In this document: positions 1,321 to 13,514 of the stretch, one piece after another
Layout of the letters: each line of letters begins with the position of its first letter
Position numbering within the stretch: the first letter of the stretch is position 1
Source: a virus
Virus genome (UHGV): UHGV-0396296
Direction: 5' to 3' (one strand)
Length of the DNA stretch: 25,960 nt
Position numbers and translations under genes: made by a program
The notes under the pieces: model-generated
Database searches by the model: none
Told to the model about the DNA's origin: nothing
The model's input: only the letters and a program-made list of their open reading frames with translations

Positions 1321-1851
1321 TTAAACCGTTTCATCACTACCTCCTAACGCTTTTGTGGCCGATCCCCGTAGCCTGGCTATCTGCTCTTGCAACTTTGCCG
1401 GCAGTGCCGCAGTCTCGTTTTTTCGCTGTGCCTCCTGTTCATACACCATCCGGAAATTCGCCCTGTCCTGCATCGGGTTTTCAGATTCGCATAGCTGTTT
1501 CCACCCCAGCCGTTTCACCACCTTGCGGGTCGTTTCATCCATGCTGGCCAGTGCCGCCTCCTGCTGGTAGTATCCGTATTTACCAACCGCCTTGCGGAAC
1601 TGTTCCCAGCCGTCCGCCCAGCCTCGCGGAGCTTCTACAGTCTGTACTGCCGCCTGTCGTATCTCTGCCGGTGTTGGCGGGAATTTGTTCGTTGACATGT
1701 GCCGTTGTATGGCTATGTTCGCCAGCTCGTATGGCATATCCTCCAGCAGCCTGTACCAAATTTTTACGCTGTCTGCGTCAGGTAGAAAATTCGGCGATGT
1801 ATATACTGCTTTCATGCCTTTTACCAGCACCTTGAACTCATTAAATGTCAT
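1321..1851 (-). CDS. Helicase loader/inhibitor-like protein (SPP1 G39P-like)
   Basis: 176-aa ORF with the KFPPTPAEI motif and a tyrosine-rich N-terminal region, recalled as the G39P-like loader family. Sits directly after the replisome organiser gene. Confidence 0.5.
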   Translation of the reverse strand: MTFNEFKVLVKGMKAVYTSPNFLPDADSVKIWYRLLEDMPYELANIAIQRHMSTNKFPPTPAEIRQAAVQTVEAPRGWADGWEQFRKAVGKYGYYQQEAALASMDETTRKVVKRLGWKQLCESENPMQDRANFRMVYEQEAQRKNETAALPAKLQEQIARLRGSATKALGGSDETV

Positions 1852-2539
1852 CTATCCAGTCTAACCGTCCAGCCTTCTCCTGCGGCGGCTTCTCCTCCTT
1901 TCTCGCCCATGTAAGGATCGTTGCGTAATGGCTCTTATACCGCTTACCCTTGCTTGCCATGTATTGCGATAATCTTTCAATGCGCTCCTGCCAGTCATAT
2001 GGGAATTGCCTTTGCAGTTTTTCCAGTTCTTCCTCCGTCAGGTGTACGTTCTTAAACTCGCCCATGGCGGGCATAATATATCTCTTTTCTTTTTTGTCTT
2101 TCTTGTCTTTCTTTATATTGGCTCCGTCTGTGGCTCTACTTGTGGCTCCGCCTGTGGCTCTACTTGTGGCTCCGCCTGTGGCTTCACCAGTCTCAGCTTC
2201 ATCTTGGTATCTGCTGTAATTTTCAATGGTTATCACGGTTCCGATGCTGGCTCCGTAGGTGGTACTGTCAAATGTCGCCATTTCCAAATCCTCAAGCAGT
2301 TTACAAAACCTCGCCACTTTACCTCTGCCCCAGCCGAATGTTTCAGCCAGTTTGCGCTGCCCTATTATCAGTTGGCCGGGTTTTAAATGAATCGCCTGCC
2401 CCTTTATTACTTCGGTCTTTTCAAATCGACACGCCTTTACCATCAGCCACTCAAAGGCGTGCCAGCGGTCGAACGGCTTTTCGTCAAACAATTCGTTTTC
2501 GACCACTTTTCGGAACAGCTTTATGTACGTCTCTGCCAC
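1841..2539 (-). CDS. Phage replication initiator / replisome organiser (winged-helix N-terminus, DnaD-like C-terminus)
   Basis: 232-aa ORF. Central linker ATGGATSRATGGATSRAT and a Lys-rich KKDKKDKKEK segment are encoded by internal DNA repeats. C-terminal region resembles DnaD-like replisome organiser domains. Confidence 0.65.
   Translation of the reverse strand: MAETYIKLFRKVVENELFDEKPFDRWHAFEWLMVKACRFEKTEVIKGQAIHLKPGQLIIGQRKLAETFGWGRGKVARFCKLLEDLEMATFDSTTYGASIGTVITIENYSRYQDEAETGEATGGATSRATGGATSRATDGANIKKDKKDKKEKRYIMPAMGEFKNVHLTEEELEKLQRQFPYDWQERIERLSQYMASKGKRYKSHYATILTWARKEEKPPQEKAGRLDWIDDI
2080..2188. repeat. AT-rich tract plus 6 direct 12-bp repeats (TGGCTCYNYCTG): candidate iteron-type origin inside the replication initiator gene
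   Basis: Repeats at 2119-2188, immediately preceded by an A/T-rich run at 2080-2118. Phage origins often lie within the initiator gene. Confidence 0.4.
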
Positions 2540-2872
2540 TTAATCACCCCGCCCCCACTCTCTGGATATCTGGTTGTCTAATATCCGTATTTGCAGTTTT
2601 ATGGAATTGATATTTTCCTGGGCGGTTTTATACATCGTTTCAGCAATGTCACGCTTTAATCGTTTATCAGCGCAGTCGCCGTATACAACTTTGTCTATCA
2701 GCGTTACGGGCATACCGGAATCCCGGCGGACAAGTGCTTGTTTCTTCAGGTCTAATTTGTAATCGTGTTCTGCTTTGGCGTATTCCCTGCCGTACTTGGC
2801 CATCAGCCGGATAGCCTCGTTTAATCGCTCTGTCAAATCATTCATTTCGTTTATCATCGACAGTCCGCTCAT
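2540..2872 (-). CDS. Hypothetical phage protein (110 aa)
   Basis: ORF translationally coupled to its neighbours. No motif recognised. Confidence 0.45.
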   Translation of the reverse strand: MSGLSMINEMNDLTERLNEAIRLMAKYGREYAKAEHDYKLDLKKQALVRRDSGMPVTLIDKVVYGDCADKRLKRDIAETMYKTAQENINSIKLQIRILDNQISREWGRGD

Positions 2873-3153
2873 AGGTAGTTCCTCCCAAAAATTCTCATAA
2901 AGTCTTCTCTTGTTCCGTGAACTTTTTCAAACGCCTCTTGCCCTTTTTTATGAAGATATTCCATATTTTCTTTGTTGAAATGAACGCCGTTCGGAGGCTC
3001 ATTATGCCAATAATGATTTAAATAAACCCATAGTCCGTATTTTTCCGACAATTTTCTATTGGCTCCTTGGTATAGATGATGTTTTTCCAACCAGTCTGTT
3101 CTGCCGCTTAAATAGCATACCTTTTCAGACTGCATAATACTCTTTGCCATCAC
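2869..3153 (-). CDS. HNH-like nuclease-motif protein (94 aa)
   Basis: Motifs LEKHHL ... GLWVYLNHYWHNEP resemble the HNH beta-beta-alpha core (HH ... N ... H). The canonical Cys pairs are incomplete. Confidence 0.4.
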   Translation of the reverse strand: MMAKSIMQSEKVCYLSGRTDWLEKHHLYQGANRKLSEKYGLWVYLNHYWHNEPPNGVHFNKENMEYLHKKGQEAFEKVHGTREDFMRIFGRNYL

Positions 3154-3703
3154 CTAACACCTCATTTCTATACGTTATTGCACAATTAAGACTTTCAAAA
3201 GTTTTACATATTTCTAAGCTTTTGATGCATACACGGTACATTCCATTCTTTTGGCGGTGTATGTACTTTTCTCCAGTATTCGTTTTTTTACATTTTGTTT
3301 TTGGCTTGCGCATATGTTTTGCCGAATATTTAATATTCTTTGCCTGTGTTGTAATTTCTAAGTTAGAAGCTTTATTATTTAACGTGTCGTAATCAATATG
3401 GTTAATGACTTTATCTTGACCAACACACCCTAAAAACGCTTCTGCCACCAACCTGTGTACGTAGTGATTTTTTTTCACATATAATCCGTTATATTCACGC
3501 CTAAGCCCCACTATTTTATATCCATTTCCATTATCGGTCGGTGTTAATAACTGCCCCTTAATTCGCCTTTCCATGGATTTTCCCCACTGAGTGTTGTTTT
3601 GAGTTATAATTCTGTCAAGAGACCTAACGTTTCCCAAGTTGCTAACCTGATAAAGTCCTTCATATCCCAGTATATCTCGCCATTCTTCCTCAAGCCTTTT
3701 CAT
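3125..3703 (-). CDS. HNH homing endonuclease with NUMOD4-type N-terminal motif
   Basis: 192-aa ORF. WRDILGYEGLYQVSNLGNVRSL is a NUMOD4-like motif, and HRLVAEAFL...INHIDYDTLNN is HNH_3-like. The gene is visibly more AT-rich than its flanks and overlaps both neighbouring genes. Confidence 0.75.
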   Translation of the reverse strand: MKRLEEEWRDILGYEGLYQVSNLGNVRSLDRIITQNNTQWGKSMERRIKGQLLTPTDNGNGYKIVGLRREYNGLYVKKNHYVHRLVAEAFLGCVGQDKVINHIDYDTLNNKASNLEITTQAKNIKYSAKHMRKPKTKCKKTNTGEKYIHRQKNGMYRVCIKSLEICKTFESLNCAITYRNEVLGDGKEYYAV

Positions 3704-4319
3704 CTGCCTCTCCTTTCAAGTCTGCGTAAACCTCCTTGAATCGTTCCACTGTGGTGTCTTTGCCCAGTTTGTAGTCTTTGGACAGTTCAGATGCCTTTAT
3801 GCCCTTCTCGTTTGCCAGTTCCAGCACCTTGCCCCTCCAAATTTCACGCTCTTTTATATCACTTACAACCTCATCCCGGCTCTTTGCGGCGGCTTTCCGT
3901 CTATCCTCGACACTTCCATCAGCTTCGTCCGGCAAATCCTCCCCTGCGTACACATACAGCCCCAGTCCGTGCCTTGCAACAGCTTTTGTCAGGCTCCTTT
4001 GGATAGCTTTGTTCACGTCAAAGCTGGTTACCATGTCCGCTGGGATGGACTTGTTGCGATAGTCCATTACCGGCAAAAACTCTATATGTTCAATTTCGAA
4101 ATCGTCAGTTACAACAGTTACCCCCGTTTTTACCCAACACGTCTTATTGTCAGAAAAGTAGTTCCACTCCAGATCGTTTTGGTAGACGGTATAATAGCTT
4201 CTCGGGTATCGTTTTTTTAGTTCCTTCCAGGCGTTGGCCCACGACAAATACGATAAATCCTTCTTTTTCTCTATCATGCTCCCGCAGTCAACGCTGTTTA
4301 GTTCCTCAAAATAGTTCAT
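3690..4319 (-). CDS. Putative single-strand annealing protein (Rad52/Sak-like, DUF1071-type), uncertain
   Basis: 209-aa ORF with LSYLSWANAW and HGLGLYVYAGEDLP motifs and an acidic/charged C-terminal tail. Family assignment is from memory only. Confidence 0.4.
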   Translation of the reverse strand: MNYFEELNSVDCGSMIEKKKDLSYLSWANAWKELKKRYPRSYYTVYQNDLEWNYFSDNKTCWVKTGVTVVTDDFEIEHIEFLPVMDYRNKSIPADMVTSFDVNKAIQRSLTKAVARHGLGLYVYAGEDLPDEADGSVEDRRKAAAKSRDEVVSDIKEREIWRGKVLELANEKGIKASELSKDYKLGKDTTVERFKEVYADLKGEADEKA

Positions 4320-5055: not shown

Positions 5056-5439
5056 TCATCGTTTGTCCTCCTTTACCAGTTTTGCGTGGTTCCAGCATGT
5101 CGTGTCGCCGTTGGTACTCCAGCTTGTCTTTCCGTAATCCCACGTAAACACTTCCCCGTCTTCAAATTTCGCAAAATGTCTCGGCCACCACTCCCCACAT
5201 TCGAAATCTCTAACATATATCGGCGTATCCACAGGCACCTTGCTCCAGTCGACTTTTGGCTCTGCGTCAGCTTTGGCTCGTAACCATTTGAGTCGTGCGA
5301 CAGTACAATCAGAGCCGGTGCTATCGTCAAGAGTGCAATCATTACAGCCACGAAGGCCGCACGGGCGTAAGCTATCTCCGAAAAGCCCCCAAGGCGACGC
5401 GGCCAAAATCTCATCCAAATATTTCTCTCTATTCGTCAT
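5056..5439 (-). CDS. Hypothetical Cys-rich phage protein (127 aa)
   Basis: ORF with a GGAGAG RBS. Cys cluster CGLRGCNDC. No family recognised. Confidence 0.45.
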   Translation of the reverse strand: MTNREKYLDEILAASPWGLFGDSLRPCGLRGCNDCTLDDSTGSDCTVARLKWLRAKADAEPKVDWSKVPVDTPIYVRDFECGEWWPRHFAKFEDGEVFTWDYGKTSWSTNGDTTCWNHAKLVKEDKR

Positions 5440-5615
5440 GCCGACTCTCCTTTCTGCATCTGCCTCTCGATGTACAACTTTATCTCCTCATCGGTAAAAA
5501 ACACCTGCGATCCCACATTGAATCCCTTGATCTCTCCCCTTTTCCGCAGCCTCCACAACGTAGTCTTGCTAATTCGCAGAAGCTCCGCAGTCTCTGTCTG
5601 TGTTAATACCTGCAT
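5436..5615 (-). CDS. Excisionase-like / MerR-type HTH_17 DNA-binding protein (59 aa)
   Basis: Start chosen at ATG 5615 (MQVLTQTETAELLRISKTTLWRLRKRGEI) because it follows an AGGAGG RBS. The ORF track start at 5648 lacks an RBS. Confidence 0.55.
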   Translation of the reverse strand: MQVLTQTETAELLRISKTTLWRLRKRGEIKGFNVGSQVFFTDEEIKLYIERQMQKGESA

Positions 5616-5629
5616 AGTGTCCTCCTTTC

Positions 5630-5658
5630 TTGTCCCGCCCGACCACATATGATAAAAT
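5630..5658 (+). promoter_or_regulatory. Candidate sigma70-type promoter for the DUF4145 gene (TTGTCC-N17-TAAAAT)
   Basis: Hexamers read directly, 17-nt spacer, 25 nt upstream of ATG 5684. Diverges from the Xis-like gene. Confidence 0.35.
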
Positions 5659-5683
5659 ACGGTGGAAAGGACGGTGATAATAA

Positions 5684-6346
5684 ATGACCGGATTCAAATG
5701 TCCATATTGTAATTCTGTTTTTCCTTTGACCAGAGATACTCTCCGAGAATGCAAGGCCTATTTCGATCCGCCTAAACCTTACGAAGCTGCTGACAACAGC
5801 GGCATAAATATTTCATTCTACAAATGCCCAAATTGCAACGAATATATAGTGCGTGCTCAAGGCTTTGGTAAACAGGTTCTTGATATAAATTCACAACTGC
5901 GCCCGCTATCTTCCGCAATACAATTCCCTGATTATGTTCCGGAGTCCATACGACAGGACTATAGCGAAGCCTGCGCTATCGTTAATCTCAGTCCTAAAGC
6001 ATCCGCCACTTTATCTCGCAGGTGTCTACAAACTATGATTCGCGACTTCTGGGGCATTACCGAAGCAACGCTTTACAAGGAAATCGAAAGTCTCGACACT
6101 ATTATTCCTTCTACACAGAAAAAAGTACTTCATAGCCTTAGACAAATCGGCAATATCGGTGCCCACCCTGAAGCTGATATCAACACAATCATTGATATCG
6201 AACCCGGCGACGCTGAAAAGCTCATTAAGGTTATCGAGTTCTTTGTTGATAAGTGGTACATCGATCGCCATGAGCAACAGCTTCTGTTTGATGAGATCAA
6301 TAATCTCAACGATGATATGCAGGATAAAAAGAAATCTGATGAGTAG
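5684..6346 (+). CDS. Zinc-ribbon plus DUF4145-domain protein (candidate defence or accessory gene)
   Basis: 220-aa ORF on the opposite strand to the surrounding early operon. N-terminal CPYC...CPNC pairs. C-terminal LHSLRQIGNIGAHPE and SRRCLQTMIRDF match recalled DUF4145 features (lR..GN.gaH). Confidence 0.6.
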   Translation: MTGFKCPYCNSVFPLTRDTLRECKAYFDPPKPYEAADNSGINISFYKCPNCNEYIVRAQGFGKQVLDINSQLRPLSSAIQFPDYVPESIRQDYSEACAIVNLSPKASATLSRRCLQTMIRDFWGITEATLYKEIESLDTIIPSTQKKVLHSLRQIGNIGAHPEADINTIIDIEPGDAEKLIKVIEFFVDKWYIDRHEQQLLFDEINNLNDDMQDKKKSDE

Positions 6347-6368
6347 TGCGCTACTCATTTTCTTTTAT
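6338..6368. terminator. Bidirectional intrinsic terminator (ATGAGTAG-TGCG-CTACTCAT hairpin with flanking T/A runs)
   Basis: Perfect 8-bp stem overlapping the DUF4145 stop, followed by TTTCTTTT on plus and T-rich on minus. Lies between convergent genes. Confidence 0.5.
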
Positions 6369-6569
6369 GAGCATATCCTTCTCAGCAAGCATTTCTCCGT
6401 CTAAGCTCCAATACTGCTTGACACGGCGCACAGGATCTTCCTGGCTACTACCTGAACCTCGCAACGCTATCGTCTCTATCACCTGTATCACTTTTGCGGA
6501 ATCTGTGCCTCTTGGCCTTGCGTGTGCATAATGCTCTTCTTCATTTCCTCTCTCTTTCAAACATTCCAT
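6351..6569 (-). CDS. Hypothetical small protein downstream of cro-like gene (72 aa)
   Basis: Start placed at ATG 6569 (MECLKERG...), 11 nt after AAGGAGG. The track start at 6581 is a GTG too close to the RBS. Confidence 0.4.
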   Translation of the reverse strand: MECLKERGNEEEHYAHARPRGTDSAKVIQVIETIALRGSGSSQEDPVRRVKQYWSLDGEMLAEKDMLIKENE

Positions 6570-6617
6570 TCCTTTTCTCACCTCCTTGTCATGCGACGGC
6601 TTCTGCCACGTTTTGTG

Positions 6618-6821
6618 TCATTGACGAGCAAAAAAAATTTCTTCTACTGACGTACCGTAATATTCTGCAAGTCTTATTTTAATTTCATCACGCGGCACTC
6701 TTTCGCCATTTTCATACATTGACAATGCCGATGGGCTTATACCTGTTGCTCTTGCTACTTCCTCCTGGCTTTTGGCGCCTCGAAGTTTTACAAGTCTTTC
6801 GGATATTACGCTCTTGTCCAT
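6618..6821 (-). CDS. Cro-like XRE-family HTH regulator
   Basis: 67-aa ORF. SQEEVARATGISPSALSMYENGERVP is a canonical XRE HTH. Transcribed divergently from the CI-like gene, towards the replication genes. Confidence 0.7.
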   Translation of the reverse strand: MDKSVISERLVKLRGAKSQEEVARATGISPSALSMYENGERVPRDEIKIRLAEYYGTSVEEIFFARQ

Positions 6822-6847
6822 TGTTCTGCACCTCCTTTCACATCATG

Positions 6848-6925
6848 ATTATATCATTCGCCACAAATCGTGTCAACACATTTTGTGGACTTTTTCTTTA
6901 CTTTTTCCACGAATCGTGTTATTAT
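6848..6925. promoter_or_regulatory. Divergent switch region: consensus leftward promoter (TTGACA-N17-TATAAT on minus), weaker rightward promoter, and three operator-like sites
   Basis: Minus strand -35 at 6871-6876 and -10 at 6848-6853 with a 17-nt spacer. Direct repeats CCACAAATCGTGT (6861-6873) and CCACGAATCGTGT (6907-6919), plus inverted partner ACACATTTTGTGG (6876-6888). Confidence 0.5.
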
Positions 6926-6954
6926 TTGCGTACACCACATATGGAGGGATAGCA

Positions 6955-7266
6955 ATGTCAAAGTTTTCAACGGTTTTTAAAAATTTAAGAATCAATAACG
7001 GATACACGCAACAGGAGCTTGCTAATAGACTTGGCGTTTCACGCAGTGCCGTTGGTATGTATGAAAATGGTGAGCGTGAGCCTGATTTTGAAACGTTAGA
7101 GGCAATAGCTGATTTCTTTAATGTGGACATGGACTATTTAATGGGTAGGAGTAATAAAATCACAACTATCGCCGCCCACCATGAAGGCGAAGAATGGACA
7201 CAGGAAGAACTTGATGAGATAGAAGAGTTTAAGAAATTTGTGAAATCAAAAAGAGATAATAAGTAG
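6955..7266 (+). CDS. CI-like XRE-family HTH repressor
   Basis: ATG 6955 preceded by GGAGGG. YTQQELANRLGVSRSAVGMYENGEREP is an XRE HTH. Followed by an ImmA-like gene. The track ORF start at 6772 is upstream of the promoter region. Confidence 0.7.
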   Translation: MSKFSTVFKNLRINNGYTQQELANRLGVSRSAVGMYENGEREPDFETLEAIADFFNVDMDYLMGRSNKITTIAAHHEGEEWTQEELDEIEEFKKFVKSKRDNK

Positions 7267-7320
7267 TGTCCATACTTTTGGACACTGGGGTCGATATAAT
7301 ACTTTTGGGGAGGTGTTACC

Positions 7321-7704
7321 GTGACGAAGTACGAAGAACTTATGGCAAGATACGACAATCTCCACATCGAGGAACGACCCATGAAAAATGATGGTCTGTA
7401 CGCTGATGATTGTATCTGGATCAATAGGAACATGCCGGAATGCCGCCGGTATTGCACGCTTGCAGAAGAGATCGGACACTATGAGACCAGCGTTGGAGAT
7501 ATATTGGATCAGACCAATACGAATAACCGCCGGCAGGAGCGAGCTGCCCGCAAGTGGGCATACGAGGAAATACTGCCAGTCGAAAATATATTATTCGCCG
7601 CTCAGGATGGACACACTGATATATGGGACATGGCAGAATACTTAGAAGTAGACGAAGCATTTCTAAAGGATGCTTTAAGGCATTATGGGATTTTAGACAT
7701 ATAA
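7321..7704 (+). CDS. ImmA/IrrE-family (M78-like) metallopeptidase homologue with non-canonical EEIGH motif
   Basis: 127-aa ORF, GTG start after GGGGAGG. Pattern IWINRNM...RRYCTLAEEIGHYE...WAYEEILPVE matches ImmA family architecture, but the first His of HExxH is Glu. Confidence 0.6.
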   Translation: MTKYEELMARYDNLHIEERPMKNDGLYADDCIWINRNMPECRRYCTLAEEIGHYETSVGDILDQTNTNNRRQERAARKWAYEEILPVENILFAAQDGHTDIWDMAEYLEVDEAFLKDALRHYGILDI

Positions 7705-7782
7705 TTTATAACGCAACGATGGCGTTCCAGAGCGATATAGTCTAATAAGGGGATAGGGCAAACACATGAAAGGAGAAGTACT

Positions 7783-8262
7783 ATGAGTGAATTTAATGAG
7801 AAACCTAAAAAGAAATTTTATAAGCGTTGGTGGTTTTGGCTAATAGTGGCCGTGGTAGTCATCGGCGTAGGTGGTGCCGCCGGGAGCGGCGGTGATGATC
7901 CTGCCGATACAAAAACAGCGCAAACCGAGCAAACAGAAGAAGCGACAGAGGCAACAGAAGCAACGGAAGCCCTCACGACCGGACAAAGAAATGCTCTCGG
8001 CTCCGCAGAGTCTTACCTTTCCGCTATGCCGTTCTCATATTCAGGGCTAATAGAACAGCTTGAATATGAAGGATACTCAACAGAGGACGCTACTTATGCC
8101 GCTGACAATTGTGGTGCAGATTGGAATGAACAAGCTGCGTTATCCGCAGAGGATTATTTGGATATTATGTCTTTTTCGCGCGACGGGTTAATAGAGCAGT
8201 TGGTATATGAAGGCTTTACGCAGGAACAAGCTGAATATGGTGCATCCGCTGTTGGTTATTAA
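7783..8262 (+). CDS. ltp: Ltp-family surface lipoprotein/membrane protein (superinfection-exclusion type)
   Basis: N-terminal TM segment WWFWLIVAVVVIGVGG, TEATEATEATEA linker, and two tandem Ltp repeats (AESYLSAMPFSYSGLIEQLEYEGYS...DNCGADWNEQA and AEDYLDIMSFSRDGLIEQLVYEGFT). RBS AAAGGAG. Confidence 0.75.
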   Translation: MSEFNEKPKKKFYKRWWFWLIVAVVVIGVGGAAGSGGDDPADTKTAQTEQTEEATEATEATEALTTGQRNALGSAESYLSAMPFSYSGLIEQLEYEGYSTEDATYAADNCGADWNEQAALSAEDYLDIMSFSRDGLIEQLVYEGFTQEQAEYGASAVGY

Positions 8263-8474
8263 GAATAACAAATAATGTAAAGCCATTTAAACGAAAAAAG
8301 GGGTATTGAGATTGTGGGTTGATAGCTTTCTGCAAACGACGTATATGATATTTTTTAACCGCAAATTAGTACTAAATTTCAAGAAAACAGTAATTTTTTT
8401 CTTGAATATATAAGTTTTTGTATATTATGCTAAACATTTTCAGCATTTCAATAACAAAAAAGTAACAATAAACA

Positions 8475-8503
8475 TTGACATTTTAAAGCGCTCAGCGTAT
8501 TAT
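8475..8503 (+). promoter_or_regulatory. Candidate promoter upstream of the Abi gene (TTGACA-N17-TATTAT)
   Basis: Hexamers read directly in an AT-rich intergenic region. Confidence 0.4.
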
Positions 8504-8516
8504 AATATTAACAGAT

Positions 8517-8580
8517 CCCGCTGGGCTTCTAGGATATCTTTGATATCCAAGCAAAAATACAGCGGGCCTTTTGCTTTTTT
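8517..8580 (+). terminator. Terminator-like hairpin in the leader of the Abi gene (outer stem CCCGCTG/CAGCGGG, inner GGATATC-TTT-GATATCC, then TTTTGCTTTTTT)
   Basis: Read directly. Lies between the candidate promoter and ATG 8596. Confidence 0.4.
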
Positions 8581-8595
8581 GGGAGAAACAAAGTA

Positions 8596-9501
8596 ATGGA
8601 TCAAAAACCATACAAAACAATTGATGAACAAGTTGAAATTTTAAAAGACCGCGGGTTAATCATAAGTGATGAGGATTATGCAAAACGGTGTCTTACTCAA
8701 CTCAATTATTATCGTTTAAGTGGCTATACTTTGACATTACGAAAAAATAATAGCTTTTACAAAAACATAACTTTTGAAAACGTAATGGATATATATAACT
8801 TTGATCGTCAACTTAAACTTTATGTGTTAAATTATCTTGAAGACATCGAAATATCGTTGCGTACTCACATAGGTTATATTTTAGGAAGCATGGATTCAGA
8901 CAAACCAGCGTATCTTAATGCTGGTTGCTATATAAGCGATGCTCATTACAACAGAGTCCTTGAAGAACTGAAGGATGCCCTTGCTGACAGTAAAAATGAA
9001 GCCTTTGTAAAGCACCACCAGACAAAATACCGCGGAAGCCTTCCTTCATGGGTAATGGTCGAAACATTATCGTTCGGAGCGCTTTCAAGACTCTTTTCAT
9101 CGCTTAAGCAAGACATAAAATGTGACATCTGTGATGCTTATTATAACCAAATCCGCCCACAAGTTGTTGAAAATCTTCTAGAAGGTTTAGTTGTTCTTCG
9201 TAATATATGCGCTCATCATTCCCGCATATATAATCGAGGCATCCCAAACACACCTAAGATGTCTAAAGTAGATAATGATTTTTTTATAGATAATGGATAT
9301 GAGCGAAATGAAATAGGAAAAAAATTATTCTTCAGACTCGTAATCATAGACCGATTGATAGAGGATGCTAATTTTTTAAGCAAAATGATATCTGATATAG
9401 ATGCATTGTCTTATAAATATCCTTTTGTTCAACTCAGGCATTATGGTTTTAAAGCAGACTGGAAAAACATGGTTTCAGAAATTAATAAACAATATAAATA
9501 A
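8596..9501 (+). CDS. Abortive infection protein, Abi_2 family (AbiD/AbiF-like)
   Basis: 301-aa ORF. KTIDEQVEILKDRGL, LNYYRLSGYTLTLR, HHQ...LPSWVMVETLSFGALSRLF and LRNICAHHSRIYNRG match recalled hallmarks of Abi_2 proteins. The gene and its upstream region are markedly AT-rich. Confidence 0.8.
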   Translation: MDQKPYKTIDEQVEILKDRGLIISDEDYAKRCLTQLNYYRLSGYTLTLRKNNSFYKNITFENVMDIYNFDRQLKLYVLNYLEDIEISLRTHIGYILGSMDSDKPAYLNAGCYISDAHYNRVLEELKDALADSKNEAFVKHHQTKYRGSLPSWVMVETLSFGALSRLFSSLKQDIKCDICDAYYNQIRPQVVENLLEGLVVLRNICAHHSRIYNRGIPNTPKMSKVDNDFFIDNGYERNEIGKKLFFRLVIIDRLIEDANFLSKMISDIDALSYKYPFVQLRHYGFKADWKNMVSEINKQYK

Positions 9502-9621
9502 AACAAAAGCCCCCATCTCTGGGAGCTGATGTATAAGGGCTGTATGATACAACCCAGCGTCGCAACTGAATTGTATCATCTCAGCCCGAAAAAGTCAATT
9601 TTCGGGTATCTTTATGCCCTG

Positions 9622-9655
9622 AACCTAACAAATCTTTGAAAGGTTTTGTTAGGTT
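9622..9655. promoter_or_regulatory. Perfect 11-bp inverted repeat (AACCTAACAAA-N12-TTTGTTAGGTT) upstream of the integrase gene
   Basis: Read directly, 38 nt upstream of int ATG 9693. Adjacent AAGGTT direct repeats. Confidence 0.4.
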
Positions 9656-9692
9656 TTAAAAGGTTCAAGCAAGGTTTAAAGGAGATGATACA

Positions 9693-10877
9693 ATGCCAGG
9701 AACGAAACAGAAACGAGGAACAGACAGCTGGACCCTGCACGTCAGAGCCGGCACTGATTTTAGGGGAAAGCCCATAAGATATACCAAAACAGTACACTGC
9801 AAAAGCGAAGCAGCTGCAGACAGGGAACTCGCCCTGTTTTATGCAGATTGCGTAAACGGCCGGGTCAACAGATCTACACCTATAACAGTAGCAGAGCTTG
9901 CCGACCAGTGGTATGAAGAGTACGTACTGCGGCACTTAAAGGTCAGCGCCCGGCGTGGCATAGATCCCGCCATAAAGATGTGGATAAAGCCACTACTTGG
10001 AAATAAGAAGGTTTCTAAAGTACAGCGCCTCGATGTGCAAAAATGGGTAAATTACGTTTCCGATCCGCAGGAGCGTACGAACAAGAGGGGCGAAAAAGTT
10101 ATAAAGCAGCTCTCCCCTAAGACTGTACGAAATTACTACTCTGCGCTTCGCGGTATGTTTGATTTTGCGGTCGATATGGGGATCATCGAGGACACTCCCT
10201 GTAAAAATATCCGTATGCCGAAAAAGGATCATAAAGAGGCCACCTACTTTTCTATAGAGGAAGTAAATGTCCTTCTAGAAGCCCTGAGCGCCTTACAGAG
10301 CGACGAACTGCGCTACAAGGTAGCGATTTACCTCGGGCTGTTTGGCGGCCTCAGGAAAGGTGAAATAATGGGATTAAACAGAGAGGATATTAACTTTGAG
10401 CGAGGCGAAATAGCAATCCGGCGTACAAGGATGATAAAACCGAAGGAAGGCGTCTACGAAGACACGCCCAAGACGGATAAATCCATAAGGACGGTCGCCC
10501 TACCTCCGGAGGTTATGGCAGAGATCCTGTGCCTGATCGCGCAACAAAAGGAGCAGAAACTGCAGCTTCAGAACCAGTACCATGACTCCCCTGCCCTGCT
10601 CCGTAACGACCACGGGGACCCACTGTACCCGCAGGTGCTGCAGAGGTGGTTTACCCGATTCCTGGAGAAAAATGGCTTACCTCACGCTGGCCTGCATTCT
10701 CTAAGACACACACACGCCTCAATGCTCGTATATCTTGGTACGGATAAAATGCAGGTCAGCTCCAGACTGGGTCACTCTCAGCTATCGACTACGCTAAATA
10801 TTTACACGCACTTATTTGAAAACGCCGACAAAAAAATAGCGGAAGATCTGTCATCGAACTTCCTAAAAGCTCGCTAG
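9693..10877 (+). CDS. int: Tyrosine site-specific integrase (phage integrase family)
   Basis: 394-aa ORF. C-terminal catalytic signature LFGGLRKGE...HSLRHTHASMLV...LGHSQLSTTLNIYTHL (R, H-x-x-R, Y). N-terminal SAM-like region. Confidence 0.9.
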   Translation: MPGTKQKRGTDSWTLHVRAGTDFRGKPIRYTKTVHCKSEAAADRELALFYADCVNGRVNRSTPITVAELADQWYEEYVLRHLKVSARRGIDPAIKMWIKPLLGNKKVSKVQRLDVQKWVNYVSDPQERTNKRGEKVIKQLSPKTVRNYYSALRGMFDFAVDMGIIEDTPCKNIRMPKKDHKEATYFSIEEVNVLLEALSALQSDELRYKVAIYLGLFGGLRKGEIMGLNREDINFERGEIAIRRTRMIKPKEGVYEDTPKTDKSIRTVALPPEVMAEILCLIAQQKEQKLQLQNQYHDSPALLRNDHGDPLYPQVLQRWFTRFLEKNGLPHAGLHSLRHTHASMLVYLGTDKMQVSSRLGHSQLSTTLNIYTHLFENADKKIAEDLSSNFLKAR

Positions 10878-11100
10878 TTGTTGTCATCATTGTTGTCATT
10901 TTGGCGAAATATGCCGAAATGTTGCGAAACGCGTTGAACGCTCAAAGCATTGAAATTTAAACGATTTGAATGATTTTGAAAATCGCCGAAATACCCTCAG
11001 AACCGATTCGAGTCCCGTGTCCTCCGCCAGCGAAGCCCTGTAATTCCAACGGTTGCAGGGCTTTTCATTTCCGTTTGTTGTCATTTTGTTGTCAATTTGA
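10877..11100. other. Candidate attP region: flanking direct repeats TTGTTGTCATTTTG, CGAAAT/TTGAA short repeats, and a tRNA-3'-end-like core
   Basis: Direct repeats at 10877-10904 and 11074-11099. Sequence TTCGAGTCCCGTGTCCTCCGCCA (11007-11029) resembles a T-loop, acceptor 3' strand and CCA. Integrase and lysis genes converge here. Confidence 0.35.
11034..11065 (+). terminator. Hairpin plus T-run (AGCCCTG...CAGGGCT TTTT) downstream of int
   Basis: 7-bp GC-rich stem followed by TTTT, read directly. Confidence 0.4.
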
Positions 11101-11140
11101 TTTTTACTGTTATTGCAATCGAAAAAACAATTCTGTATAA

Positions 11141-11172
11141 TAAAAAAAGAGCGGTGGCAAGTCCGCCCTCTT
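11141..11172 (-). terminator. Intrinsic terminator after the small minus-strand ORF
   Basis: Minus strand reads AGAGGGCGG-loop-CCGCTCT followed by TTTTTTT. Confidence 0.45.
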
Positions 11173-11189
11173 ATGTGTGTGCCTGTCGA

Positions 11190-11333
11190 TTATTCGGCAG
11201 GTTTTTCCTTTTTTGCCATCTCCCTAACGTCTTCGATAGCCTTCTTTACTTCGTCCATATCCTTACAGGCTGCGAATTTATCGGCTACCAAATTAAGTAT
11301 CACTTCCATCTGCTTATCCGTCATATTCTCCAC
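11190..11333 (-). CDS. Small hypothetical protein (about 47 aa; ...MTDKQMEVILNLVADKFAACKDMDEVKKAIEDVREMAKKEKPAE)
   Basis: Hand-translated. Below the ORF track length cutoff. AAGGAGG RBS 5 nt before in-frame GTG 11333 (ATG at 11324). Followed by a terminator. Confidence 0.35.
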   Translation of the reverse strand: MENMTDKQMEVILNLVADKFAACKDMDEVKKAIEDVREMAKKEKPAE

Positions 11334-11393
11334 AGCGCCCTCCTTTCTCCGCTTGCCCGGTTATTACCGTCCGGTTTCCCTTTCGGTAATTAT

Positions 11394-11422
11394 AATATAC
11401 ACTATTTTTTATATTTTGTCAA
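11394..11422 (-). promoter_or_regulatory. Near-consensus promoter (TTGACA-N17-TATATT) for the small ORF
   Basis: Read on the minus strand. Spacer is similar to those of the two promoters at 11707-11805. Confidence 0.4.
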
Positions 11423-11464
11423 TGTGTTTTTATATATTATTTTATATTTTTTATACTTTTTCGT

Positions 11465-11683
11465 TTATATTATAGGCTCGCCCGTTTCTTTGTCGATGAA
11501 TTGTATTCTCAGCTCTGCGTCGAATGCCTCCGCAATTTTTTCCAATTCAGACACCTTAAACGTGTTCCGTTTGTATTTATTGTTTAAATTCTGCGGCGTT
11601 TGTCCTGTACGCCGAGCAAGTTCCGCTTCCGACATATTTCCTCTTTTAACCCTACACAGATTTATATATTCTCTGACATTCAT
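11465..11683 (-). CDS. XRE-family HTH regulator (72 aa)
   Basis: MSEAELARRTGQTPQNLNNKYKRNTF is an HTH. GGAGGT RBS 6 nt before the ATG. Confidence 0.6.
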   Translation of the reverse strand: MNVREYINLCRVKRGNMSEAELARRTGQTPQNLNNKYKRNTFKVSELEKIAEAFDAELRIQFIDKETGEPII

Positions 11684-11706
11684 ATGCTGACCTCCTTCCT
11701 CTTTTG

Positions 11707-11735
11707 ATTATACACTATATTTTATAATATGTCAA
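11707..11735 (-). promoter_or_regulatory. Consensus promoter TTGACA-N17-TATAAT driving the HTH gene
   Basis: Minus strand -35 at 11730-11735 and -10 at 11707-11712. Confidence 0.5.
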
Positions 11736-11776
11736 AAAAAGAATTTAAATAATATAAAATATTTTATAAAAAACCG

Positions 11777-11805
11777 TTGACAGAATATAAAATTACGTGT
11801 ATAAT
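11777..11805 (+). promoter_or_regulatory. Consensus promoter TTGACA-N17-TATAAT driving the small acidic ORF
   Basis: Plus strand -35 at 11777-11782 and -10 at 11800-11805. Divergent from the promoter at 11707-11735. Confidence 0.5.
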
Positions 11806-11928
11806 ATAATCACAAGGTGAGATAAGGAGGCAATACCATCTCAGTAATGCACTGGGAACAGGTGCAAAAAGAGTTGACACTATAAATAATATATGGGATA
11901 TTGTAAAAAACAAGAGGAGGATAAAAAA

Positions 11929-12162
11929 ATGAAAAAGATGTTTTTAGAAAGTAACGGCTATAACATGATAGGTTTTATATTCGAAGATAATAAAATGGTG
12001 GCATTCGATTGCGAAACATTAGAAGACGCAAAGAATATGGACTGCTCGGGCGTGGAAGGCTGCAAGAGCGCAGAAGAAGCCGCTGTGGACTGCGATACCG
12101 AAGTTTATCCGTTTATTGAAGATGAGTGGGAAAACGTTACATTTATAGAGGAAATGGAATAG
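11929..12162 (+). CDS. Small acidic Cys-containing protein (77 aa), hypothetical
   Basis: ATG 11929 lies 8 nt after GAGGAGG. The track start at 11893 has no RBS. Protein is rich in D/E. Confidence 0.5.
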   Translation: MKKMFLESNGYNMIGFIFEDNKMVAFDCETLEDAKNMDCSGVEGCKSAEEAAVDCDTEVYPFIEDEWENVTFIEEME

Positions 12163-12203
12163 CATAAAAAATCCCCGGCCTTCGCCGGGGACGCTCTATT
12201 TTA
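12163..12203. terminator. Bidirectional terminator (CCCCGGC-CTTC-GCCGGGG hairpin with A-run upstream and T-rich downstream)
   Basis: Read directly, between convergent genes. Confidence 0.55.
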
Positions 12204-12543
12204 TATATCCATCTTTGCCCACATAGTAGGGATTCCATTTTGTGCGAACCTTTACAATGGGTAATTCTTTGCATTTTTCATATATCTCTGTCCCTGTTCC
12301 GTTTCCACCAAGTCCGTGATAGCCCTGGTAGATTTCTGTAAGGGTTTCCATTTCTTCAAACGTTATTTGATCGGTTTCGATATAGAATTGGCCGTATCTG
12401 AACAGACGATCATGCCCGTTCGCCCGAACGGCTATTGTCAAGGCCCTAAATCGTCGTATCACCCATGCCAGGGTGCCAGCCGCAAAACTGGCAACCCCCG
12501 CACAAAATATCTCTATCCAATTTTCCAGTATACTTTCCCACAT
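12196..12543 (-). CDS. Membrane protein appended to the lysis cassette (N-terminal TM helix), function unknown
   Basis: ORF directly follows the endolysin stop. Hydrophobic segment WIEIFCAGVASFAAGTLAWVI. Start is either GTG 12552 or ATG 12543. Confidence 0.45.
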   Translation of the reverse strand: MWESILENWIEIFCAGVASFAAGTLAWVIRRFRALTIAVRANGHDRLFRYGQFYIETDQITFEEMETLTEIYQGYHGLGGNGTGTEIYEKCKELPIVKVRTKWNPYYVGKDGYIK

Positions 12544-12552
12544 AGGCGACAC

Positions 12553-13296
12553 CTACACATTTATATGTACAGCATTACCCATACCCGTAGTATTGGCATA
12601 TGAATAGGCAGCGCCCAGATCGTATGCCTTGGCTACTACCTGTTTCCTTCCGTCCGCTGTATCACAGATGCCAGGAATGTAGATGTCGGCAGCCCTGCCC
12701 TTCATGTGGGTGGAATTAGATGCCCCACCTACCTGTTTGTTTCTCGTGGCACATCTCTGTCCAGATGTAATAGTTATTGGTTTCCCATAATATGCACGCA
12801 GATTTTCCAGCAGATTGAGCAGCTTAGATGACGTATCTCCCGCCGGATATCCGTTGCAATATTTACCGCCACACCCGCACTTGAACTCTGATTTTGCAAA
12901 ATGCGCCGAAGAACCGCCGGAAGCTGTGCCGGCAGAACCGGAAGAACCGGAACCGCTGCGCAGCGCAGCCCACGTTGCCTGTCCAGCGCATCCGTCGGCT
13001 GTCAGGCCCAGCTTTTTCTGTACGGTCTTTATAGCTGCTGCCGTCTTCTGCCCCAGAACGCCATCGACGGTCAGCCCCGCGCCGTATTTATTTAACAGCG
13101 TCTGCAACTCCTTCGTTACCGATACAGCCTTCGCATCTGTCTTAGCTCCCCAAATGCCATCTACCGACAGGCCATAGCCATTTTGGAATTTCTTTGTAGC
13201 CGCCTTTGTCTGGGCGCCCTCTATGCCATCCAGTGCGCCTGTATAATAACCATAGTTATATTTTAGAAAATACTGTCTGTATAAAACCGATATCAT
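12553..13296 (-). CDS. Endolysin: two peptidoglycan-binding repeats plus C-terminal peptidase M15 (D-Ala-D-Ala carboxypeptidase-like) domain
   Basis: Start ATG 13296 overlaps the holin stop and follows a GGAGA RBS. PG_binding-like repeats, GSGSSGSAG linker, and SGQRCATRNKQVGGASNSTHMKGRAADIYI...NAVHINV. The track ORF extends upstream in-frame but overlaps the holin. Confidence 0.8.
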   Translation of the reverse strand: MISVLYRQYFLKYNYGYYTGALDGIEGAQTKAATKKFQNGYGLSVDGIWGAKTDAKAVSVTKELQTLLNKYGAGLTVDGVLGQKTAAAIKTVQKKLGLTADGCAGQATWAALRSGSGSSGSAGTASGGSSAHFAKSEFKCGCGGKYCNGYPAGDTSSKLLNLLENLRAYYGKPITITSGQRCATRNKQVGGASNSTHMKGRAADIYIPGICDTADGRKQVVAKAYDLGAAYSYANTTGMGNAVHINV

Positions 13297-13514
13297 TACT
13301 CTACGTCTCCTTCCTGCAATTCCGGCAGGCTGACAATACTGTTCAACAGACTCAGCACGCCGGACAGTATCGACGCCGATACTACCATTTTCCAATCCAC
13401 CGCCGCAAATACCGCAGCCGTTCCTATAGTTGCGATGGCCGTCTGCGCTACCGTGCGGATAGCACGCATACCGGCCTTCTTTATCCACGTCTTAAATTTC
13501 TCCATGTCGTTCAC
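13296..13514 (-). CDS. Holin (small two-TM protein)
   Basis: 72 aa with two hydrophobic segments (AIRTVAQTAIATIGTAAVFAAV and MVVSASILSGVLSLLNSIV) and a charged C-terminus. Immediately upstream of the endolysin. Confidence 0.7.
   Translation of the reverse strand: MNDMEKFKTWIKKAGMRAIRTVAQTAIATIGTAAVFAAVDWKMVVSASILSGVLSLLNSIVSLPELQEGDVE

Follow-up and report, generated by a model that had tools for sequence, protein, structure and literature searches.

The virus genome UHGV-0396296 carries, between its immunity genes and its integrase, a gene for an Ltp-type superinfection-exclusion protein followed by abiD, a gene of the Abi_2 family. The whole stretch of DNA that was analysed, 25,960 nucleotides (nt) in length, is referred to as the window. 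According to our analysis, and with a probability that we put at roughly three in four, ltp and abiD represent two independent defence modules expressed from the prophage, lying side by side in a variable cargo zone that extends from the immunity genes to the integrase, with the AbiD/F cassette being a self-contained type III toxin-antitoxin (TA) system. The AT-rich region upstream of abiD is functional, holding the gene's own promoter and a small structured RNA.

AbiD belongs to the AbiD/F group of HEPN RNases

The abiD gene (8596-9501, plus strand) encodes a protein of 301 amino acids (aa) that belongs to the abiD/abiF family of HEPN RNase toxins. It matches PF07751 with 175 bits (cut-off 25.6; 2.6e-51) over profile positions 2-184 of 184, the AbiD model of PADLOC over positions 2-275 of 277 (1.1e-84), and phrog_2158, 'abortive infection resistance protein', at 2e-70. 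By sequence it is also matched over its full length by PbAbiF (8.5e-34), deposited as PDB 8vz6 under the title 'PbAbiF dimer bound to ncRNA' (ncRNA, non-coding RNA). An AlphaFold2 model of AbiD with a predicted local distance difference test (pLDDT) score of 94.2 was compared with the PDB by Foldseek, and chain 8vz6_A was its sole significant match (template modelling score 0.81, E 4.9e-13). Residues R202, N203, C205, A206 and H207 are unchanged in 35 homologs and are aligned with the R/H motif of 8vz6; conservation and alignment identify the HEPN catalytic motif R-phi-xxx-H (R202-N-I-C-A-H207) at 9199-9216 on the plus strand.

A preliminary description of this stretch had named the Abi_2 and Ltp families, and both assignments are upheld by the profile searches (PF07751, PF07553, PADLOC, PHROGs). 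Its statement that Abi_2 proteins have no established mechanism is outdated, since AbiF is now established as a toxic HEPN RNase that is countered by an RNA encoded upstream of it (PMC12373285; PMC13064643; PDB 8VZ6). AbiF of the Clostridioides difficile prophage phi027 (AbiF_Cd) is toxic, and R202 and H207 are required for its toxicity (PMC12373285). Transcription of RCd22, the RNA upstream of it, begins at a SigA promoter; abiF motifs are present in this RNA from +9 on, and most of it ends ahead of the gene. RCd22 binds AbiF and counteracts its toxicity in cis as well as in trans (PMC12373285). In PDB 8VZ6 the PbAbiF dimer holds one ncRNA per monomer, with bulged nucleotides blocking the HEPN site (PMC12737573); the complex is that of Zilberzwige-Tal et al. 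(2025), as cited in PMC12373285 and PMC12737573. The AbiD/F group as a whole has been classed as type III TA, with an upstream sequence that is more conserved than the gene (PMC13064643).

A promoter and a conserved structured RNA precede abiD

Upstream of abiD and its leader lies a sigma-70/SigA-type promoter (8475-8503, plus strand; TTGACA-17-TATTAT, 11/12 consensus matches), for which we infer a transcription start site (TSS) near 8510. Its -35 and -10 elements are kept in register across homologous loci. Loci whose coding sequences are only 61-70% identical retain a leader identity of 71-95% over the unit between the -35 element and the ATG, and the sequence farther 5' of this conserved unit is unrelated among those loci. 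A ribosome-binding site (RBS), GGGAGA, is located at 8581-8586 on the same strand. The preliminary description had placed abiD in the rightward immunity operon, which is not supported, as the gene has its own near-consensus promoter and structured leader.

The abiF-like ncRNA or 5' leader occupies 8509-8580 on the plus strand, as supported by its minimum free energy (MFE), by covariation and by two covariance models (CMs), R1 and R2. The leader folds with an MFE of -20.2 kcal/mol (z -4.7). Its closing stem P1 (CCCGCUG/CAGCGGG, 8517-8523 with 8560-8566) is followed by a one-base bulge, by P1b (GCUU/AAGC, 8525-8528 with 8549-8552), by the loop CUA and by the hairpin P2 (GGAUAUC-UUU-GAUAUCC, 8532-8538 with 8542-8548). 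The 3' junction AAAAAUA comprises 8553-8559, and directly 3' of the P1 closing stem stands CCUUUUGCUUUUUU, with the U-tract at 8569-8580.

Comparison of loci supports this structure. RNAalifold recovered P1 from 22 non-redundant loci, with compensatory changes in 6/7 pairs; 95% of the P1 cells were paired in these 22 and again in 52 sequences, a value reached by 0/500 shuffles. Neither the sequence nor the length of P2 is conserved; nevertheless, 22/22 sequences form a hairpin at this place when each is folded separately. Per-sequence folding was used instead of counts from MAFFT columns, which failed for P2 (38-49% paired) because the length and register of the hairpin vary. CM R1 scored 72.4 bits on the window and found a single copy, the next-best match being merely a terminator. 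It also matched in 49 of the 88 Abi_2 loci, from many phyla and on the coding strand, ending 9-131 nt 5' of the Abi_2 gene; E-values of the covariance models are rough, and alignment A5, which is based on R1, is fitted to the model. Additional R1 matches were observed in L024 (5913-5967), L032 (2216-2270), L058 (6450-6510) and L065 (4072-4134), 3' of the Abi_2 gene in three of these loci and as a second upstream copy in one. These matches could mark the leaders of second Abi genes arranged in tandem, or a duplication of the motif like that in RCd22.

Two AU-rich hairpins (8380-8426, plus strand; -9.6 kcal/mol, z -2.1) lie 5' of the Abi promoter and are conserved nowhere outside the identical cassette described below; they could possibly act as a weak terminator or insulator after ltp. 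The only tandem repeat in 8263-8595 is an A-rich one of 11 nt x1.9. Small minus-strand open reading frames (ORFs) at 8492-8631 overlap the conserved leader RNA and the beginning of abiD in antisense and were judged spurious from this position.

The leader RNA and its known relatives

In Rfam the abiF RNA is represented by the family RF03085 (consensus CCCGCCAAGCCUCUCA[n]GCUCAAAUCGGCGGGU), which matches phiC2 (the RCd22 locus), L101 and L065, and misses the Firmicutes relatives. Alignment A4 brings the window RNA into register with the RNAs of L101 and L065, both of which Rfam detects. They agree in their promoter-proximal position, in a GC-rich P1 and invariant inner G-C/C-G pairs, in the CUNU loop, in a 3' junction rich in A and in a tail rich in U. 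Intermediates were also found, such as L049, in which a canonical 5' half is joined to a Firmicutes 3' half. A second model, R2, was built solely from 17 canonical abiF motifs and ranked 8509-8580 first across the window with the same ends (17.2 bits, E ~0.057). From these comparisons we conclude that the window leader is a divergent subtype of the abiF RNA, in which the motif stands once, P2 is inserted at the apex and the junction is altered. MIR6274 and MEG8_3, which came up in permissive Rfam scans of the window and of the leader, are chance matches.

Among characterized systems, the AbiF/AbiFr pairs (PbAbiF with its ncRNA, AbiF_Cd with RCd22) are similar in both halves. They share an Abi_2/HEPN protein of ~300 aa with the R-N-x-x-A/C-H motif at R202/H207, and PbAbiF in particular is matched by AbiD in full-length sequence and in fold. 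They are likewise phage-borne and show the same succession of SigA-type promoter, RNA hairpin ~8 nt past the TSS, U-rich terminator-like tract, RBS and toxin gene, and the RNAs have in common a GC-rich P1 (CCCRCY/...GGG), inner GC/GC pairs that are invariant, the CUNU loop and the A-rich 3' junction. The window protein is ~32% identical to AbiF_Cd and 27% to PbAbiF, and its RNA escapes RF03085, has a 17-nt P2 hairpin in place of a short apical loop, a 3' junction AAAAAUA instead of CAAAUC, and one motif copy where RCd22 has two. While RCd22 has a separate terminator hairpin, the window motif seems to terminate through its own P1 and U-tract. The window module also lies between the immunity genes and int, and not in or after the lysis module.

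[quoted passage not shown] They are, in contrast, mostly plasmid-borne and have measured phenotypes, whereas the window system is known from sequence alone and is carried by a temperate phage whose host is uncultured and Clostridia-like. A plasmid search for lactococcal AbiD/F loci gave no Lactococcus record among the best 40 matches. ToxIN and AbiQ are similar in principle, in that a small RNA, encoded in cis and produced in excess through a terminator before the toxin gene, inhibits an RNase toxin. Their toxin fold (ToxN/AbiQ) is unrelated to HEPN, and ToxI is a tandem repeat array processed by the toxin, unlike the single hairpin of the window, which has no array.

Base composition and exchange of cargo

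The GC content is 0.300 in the 333-bp spacer (8263-8595) and 0.336 in abiD, compared with 0.469 in ltp and 0.492 in int. The interval 8263-9692 is the lowest-GC stretch of 1.43 kb in the window (z = -4.1; GC elsewhere: mean 0.468, sd 0.032), and the GC content at third codon positions (GC3) of abiD, 0.278, is the lowest among 23 ORFs. Windowed GC and GC3 therefore agree with the preliminary description, in which the Abi gene and ~330 bp upstream of it were said to be more AT-rich than the flanks. What that description had missed is the RNA coded in this upstream region. Its further claim, that the Abi gene was acquired separately, is strongly supported by three related loci (L001-L003) with an identical AbiD, where identity amounts to 99.5% over the block 8296-9739, compared with 89% in the integrase body and 79% in ImmA.

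Close relatives differ in what they carry at this site. In L001-L003 the gene that separates ImmA from the AbiD cassette is not ltp but an unrelated one of 342 aa (327-1355 in L001). The slot adjacent to abiD, too, is subject to exchange, here of Ltp for an orphan. The orphan protein had no match in Pfam, PHROG or PADLOC and may be a so far unrecognised exclusion or defence gene. L103, a locus from IMG/VR that represents the closest phage relative, is 96% identical to 6544-8338 of the window, which holds cro, cI, ImmA and Ltp (Ltp 99% at the aa level), and 91% identical to the int-bearing block 9498-11211. In the AbiD slot, which separates the two matching blocks, L103 carries 2.2 kb of other cargo (1848-3975) with a gene for a 394-aa protein that weakly matches PDC-S02 of PADLOC (2e-11), followed by a HicA/HicB toxin-antitoxin pair. 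As delimited by this comparison, the AbiD/F module extends over 1.16 kb (8339-9497, plus strand; GC ~0.34) and comprises the AU-rich hairpins, the promoter, the ncRNA leader and the abiD ORF.

More distant AbiD homologs (57-58% aa identity) occupy the slot between the immunity genes and the recombinase in ten further loci (L010-L019). The order is cI, a gene of unknown function, a gene for a BRCT-domain protein, a 418-bp spacer, AbiD and a serine recombinase in L010-L014, and cI, ImmA, a 334-bp spacer, AbiD and a tyrosine integrase in L015-L019. AbiD occurs without Ltp in L010 and L015. Conversely, an AbiD homolog was found near ltp in 0 of the 80 IMG/VR Ltp loci whose flanks were fetched, and in 23 of these 80 a co-oriented integrase follows ~130 bp to 1.3 kb 3' of ltp, in some directly adjacent. 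A back-translated pattern scan of IMG/VR for AbiD yielded nothing that could be confirmed. Cassette identity in L001-L003, the swap in L103 and the 0/80 Ltp loci together argue for a separate acquisition of the Abi gene. Judging from these sequences, the ltp-int interval is a hot spot where close relatives swap defence or toxin-antitoxin cassettes, and the earlier claim of an anti-phage cargo island is borne out in the sense that the site is a hot spot for such cargo.

The Ltp protein

The ltp gene (7783-8262, plus strand) encodes a protein with a tandem Ltp repeat domain, matching PF07553 in two stretches (106.7 bits; 6.4e-31). Its product matches phrog_4980, 'superinfection exclusion', over the full length (2.3e-49), and residues 68-154 match PDB 4eqq (2.9e-12). 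It is built from an N-terminal transmembrane (TM) anchor (residues ~16-33), with the hydrophobic segment WWFWLIVAVVVIGVGGAAG behind a basic N-terminus, from a Thr/Glu/Ala-rich spacer coded by a 9-nt tandem repeat (7938-7970), and from the two Ltp repeats. Neither a promoter nor a terminator was called in the immA-ltp interval, and the position and orientation of ltp are consistent with a lysogeny module, in which it would be the last gene of a cI-immA-ltp transcript.

The prototype is Ltp of the Streptococcus thermophilus phage TP-J34 (PDB 4EQQ), whose gene belongs to the lysogeny module; the protein is made by the prophage, stops the injection of DNA and consists of anchor, spacer and repeat domain (PMC3952083). 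Both proteins have two tandem Ltp repeats, an N-terminal membrane tether and a low-complexity spacer, and both genes lie, by position, in the lysogeny module, co-oriented with the repressor and next to int. They differ in the tether, a TM helix and not a lipid anchor in the window protein, and in the spacer, which is Ser-rich in TP-J34 Ltp. By homology with TP-J34 Ltp, we posit that the window protein is membrane-anchored and outward-facing and may block the DNA injection of superinfecting siphophages.

Proposed mechanism and alternative explanations

For the AbiD/F cassette, we propose that transcription would start near 8510 from the constitutive SigA-type promoter, and that the first ~70 nt would fold into the abiF-type hairpin (P1/P1b/P2), followed by CCUUUUGCUUUUUU. 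As the closing stem stands directly before this tract, most transcripts would be expected to end there and to accumulate as a small RNA. Read-through past the attenuator formed by P1 and the U-tract would provide the abiD mRNA, leaving the ~70-nt antitoxin RNA in excess. AbiD would act as a dimeric HEPN RNase (R202/H207) that is kept silent by one RNA per monomer, bound in the groove of the active site. An infecting phage might upset the balance between RNA and protein or supply a trigger, upon which free AbiD would cut cellular and phage single-stranded RNA, leading to growth arrest and an aborted infection. Of these elements, the sequences themselves show the family memberships, the catalytic motif, the fold, the promoter, the covarying RNA with its position and the modular exchange; for termination at the U-tract, binding of the RNA to the protein, toxicity and the effect on phages, the proposal draws on homologs.

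Several results weigh against this interpretation of the two modules. RF03085 gave no match to the window, neither at the gathering score nor at E <= 10 on 501 nt or 81 nt. R2 omits the hairpin interior and scores low on the window RNA, and the homology of the interior to the canonical abiF RNA therefore rests on the intermediates and on position. Neither a second motif copy nor a ToxI-like array is present in the window, which has one copy compared with two in RCd22. The terminator scan did not call P1 with the U-tract, because the enclosed 'loop' of 36 nt is above its limit. The Ltp sequence contains no Cys before about residue 108 and hence no lipobox cysteine, which the prototype has; we therefore consider it anchored by a TM helix and not a lipoprotein, and superinfection-exclusion (Sie) proteins with such an anchor are also known (PMC3952083). 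Finally, anti-phage activity was not demonstrated for AbiF_Cd (PMC12373285).

The last point leads to the alternative that we take most seriously, though we regard it as unlikely, namely that the AbiD module serves mainly for addiction or stabilisation, as a toxin-antitoxin through which the host retains the prophage or the cassette itself, and is not an anti-phage system, with an equal molecular mechanism and a different selective role. The authors of the C. difficile study, who could not show anti-phage activity, proposed prophage maintenance as an alternative (PMC12373285). The cassette also behaves as a selfish mobile module, being 99.5% identical across different backbones, and a classical HicAB toxin-antitoxin takes the AbiD slot in L103. 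On the other hand, lactococcal AbiD, AbiD1 and AbiF were all isolated through a phage-resistance phenotype (PMC13064643), PADLOC and PHROGs class the family as defence, and the neighbouring cargo is of the defence type (Ltp, and the PDC-S02-like gene in L103). Considerably less probable is a leader that acts only in cis, as an attenuator/terminator or by translational control that keeps abiD low, and that is no protein-binding antitoxin RNA. Such a role would be in line with the conserved U-tract directly 3' of P1, with the very weak transcription and the translational control of abiD1 (PMC13064643), and with RCd22, which too acts in cis through premature termination (PMC12373285). The unpaired nucleotides of loop and junction are, however, over-conserved for a simple terminator (GC..GC invariant, CUNU, AAAU-type junction), and homologous RNAs bind protein (8VZ6, C. 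difficile) and work in trans.

The preliminary description had joined Ltp and AbiD into a two-gene defence cargo, and it could be argued from their adjacency and common orientation in the window that they form one co-selected unit, acquired together. We give this hardly any credence, as the genes assort independently: they occur separately in L001, L103, L010 and L015, and the Ltp loci have int co-oriented shortly 3' of ltp (23 of 80) and no AbiD homolog (0/80). The two genes are moreover far apart in GC content (0.469 vs 0.336), and AbiD has its own promoter. The comparative data already refute a two-gene unit, and two independent modules remain our preferred explanation.

Genomic setting and further elements

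The cargo is part of a plus-strand series of genes, for which the ORF listing and the profile searches agree with the order given previously (cI, ImmA, Ltp, Abi_2, integrase). The first gene of the rightward lysogeny operon codes for a cI-like helix-turn-helix (HTH) repressor (6955-7266; HTH_3 8.9e-21 and Phage_CI_repr 0.003 in Pfam), and it is followed by an ImmA/IrrE-type metalloprotease of the Peptidase_M78 family (7321-7704; PF06114 2.8e-12). The tyrosine integrase is encoded at 9693-10877 (PF00589 2.3e-23, PF14659 9.8e-12). Back-to-back promoter-like sites at 6848-6925, between the cro-like and the cI-like gene, show the typical layout of a genetic switch. The minus-strand promoter (6876..6848) agrees with the consensus in 12/12 positions, has an extended -10 and faces the cro-like gene (6618-6821), and a weaker promoter-like site (6897-6925, plus strand) is directed at cI.

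Between abiD and int, the minus strand carries a promoter-hairpin-terminator unit (9497-9598), a candidate small RNA (sRNA) of ~68 nt. It consists of a promoter-like TTGACT-17-TACAAT with TG at 9598..9570 and a strong intrinsic terminator at 9527..9508. The unit, with a covarying terminator stem, is also present in L015 and L103, and therefore belongs to the int-proximal backbone and not to the Abi module. Pairing of the candidate sRNA (9497-9564) with the start region of int via UUGUAUCAU/AUGAUACAA was rejected, the duplex being no better than shuffles (p ~0.06), and many better pairing sites exist elsewhere. Just 5' of the integrase RBS, at 9635-9665, a 10-nt tandem repeat (TTTGAAAGGT x3.1) was observed, which could serve as an array of protein-binding sites or belong to the int promoter region.

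Small genes come first in the region 3' of the integrase (10878-13488), and the opposite strand then carries an endolysin gene (12553-13488; PG_binding_1 + Peptidase_M15_3) and tail genes. This arrangement is that of an excised or circular phage genome and not of an integrated prophage with host flanks. A related AbiD-carrying phage is present in integrated form in L015 and in circular form in L016-L017. A megablast search of window positions 5600-11200 against GenBank phages gave no match, and a scan of the window for tRNAs, made in search of tRNA/att landmarks, found none.

Two other genes of the window deserve mention. The plus strand at 5684-6346, between minus-strand early genes (an HTH_17/Xis-like gene at 5436-5648 and the cro-like gene at 6618-6821), encodes a protein of 220 aa that has a zinc ribbon at its N-terminus and a DUF4145 domain (Pfam 1.8e-15) and that also matches PD-T7-4 of PADLOC (1.7e-18). 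DUF4145 is a HEPN family (PMC3710099). By these matches, the gene is a candidate for a third defence gene of the lysogeny region. On the minus strand, a homing-endonuclease-like gene with NUMOD4 and HNH_3 domains (3125-3703; Pfam 1e-17 and 1.4e-09) adjoins the gene for a Sak single-strand annealing protein (3690-4319). Its GC content of 0.361 is the second lowest of the ORFs (GC3 0.342), and it is probably another mobile insertion.

Significance

Both cargo genes are typical lysogeny-module morons of Firmicutes phages, with mechanisms that are established in homologs, and the findings at this locus leave the current understanding of the AbiD/F family unchanged. The new points are modest: an RNA that had been overlooked in the preliminary description, a subtype that escapes the Rfam model, and a clean swapping of cassettes between near relatives. 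What had been a gene of unknown mechanism with an odd AT-rich spacer can now be annotated as a module of promoter, antitoxin RNA and HEPN toxin, in which the spacer is the functional half. The Firmicutes form of the RNA goes unnoticed by the Rfam abiF model, and many such loci will therefore be labelled a single-gene 'Abi family protein' in annotation pipelines.

We tentatively raise a further possibility, which we hold to be less probable than its opposite, that 8509-8580 represents a distinct, Firmicutes-wide subclass of AbiF antitoxin RNAs missed by Rfam, in which the closing stem and the conserved CCUUUUG-U tract double as an intrinsic terminator. If this were true, antitoxin production and attenuation of the toxin would be fused in one element of ~70 nt, a minimal design that would be of use for tracing the evolution of AbiF RNAs towards the CRISPR RNAs (crRNAs) of Cas13.

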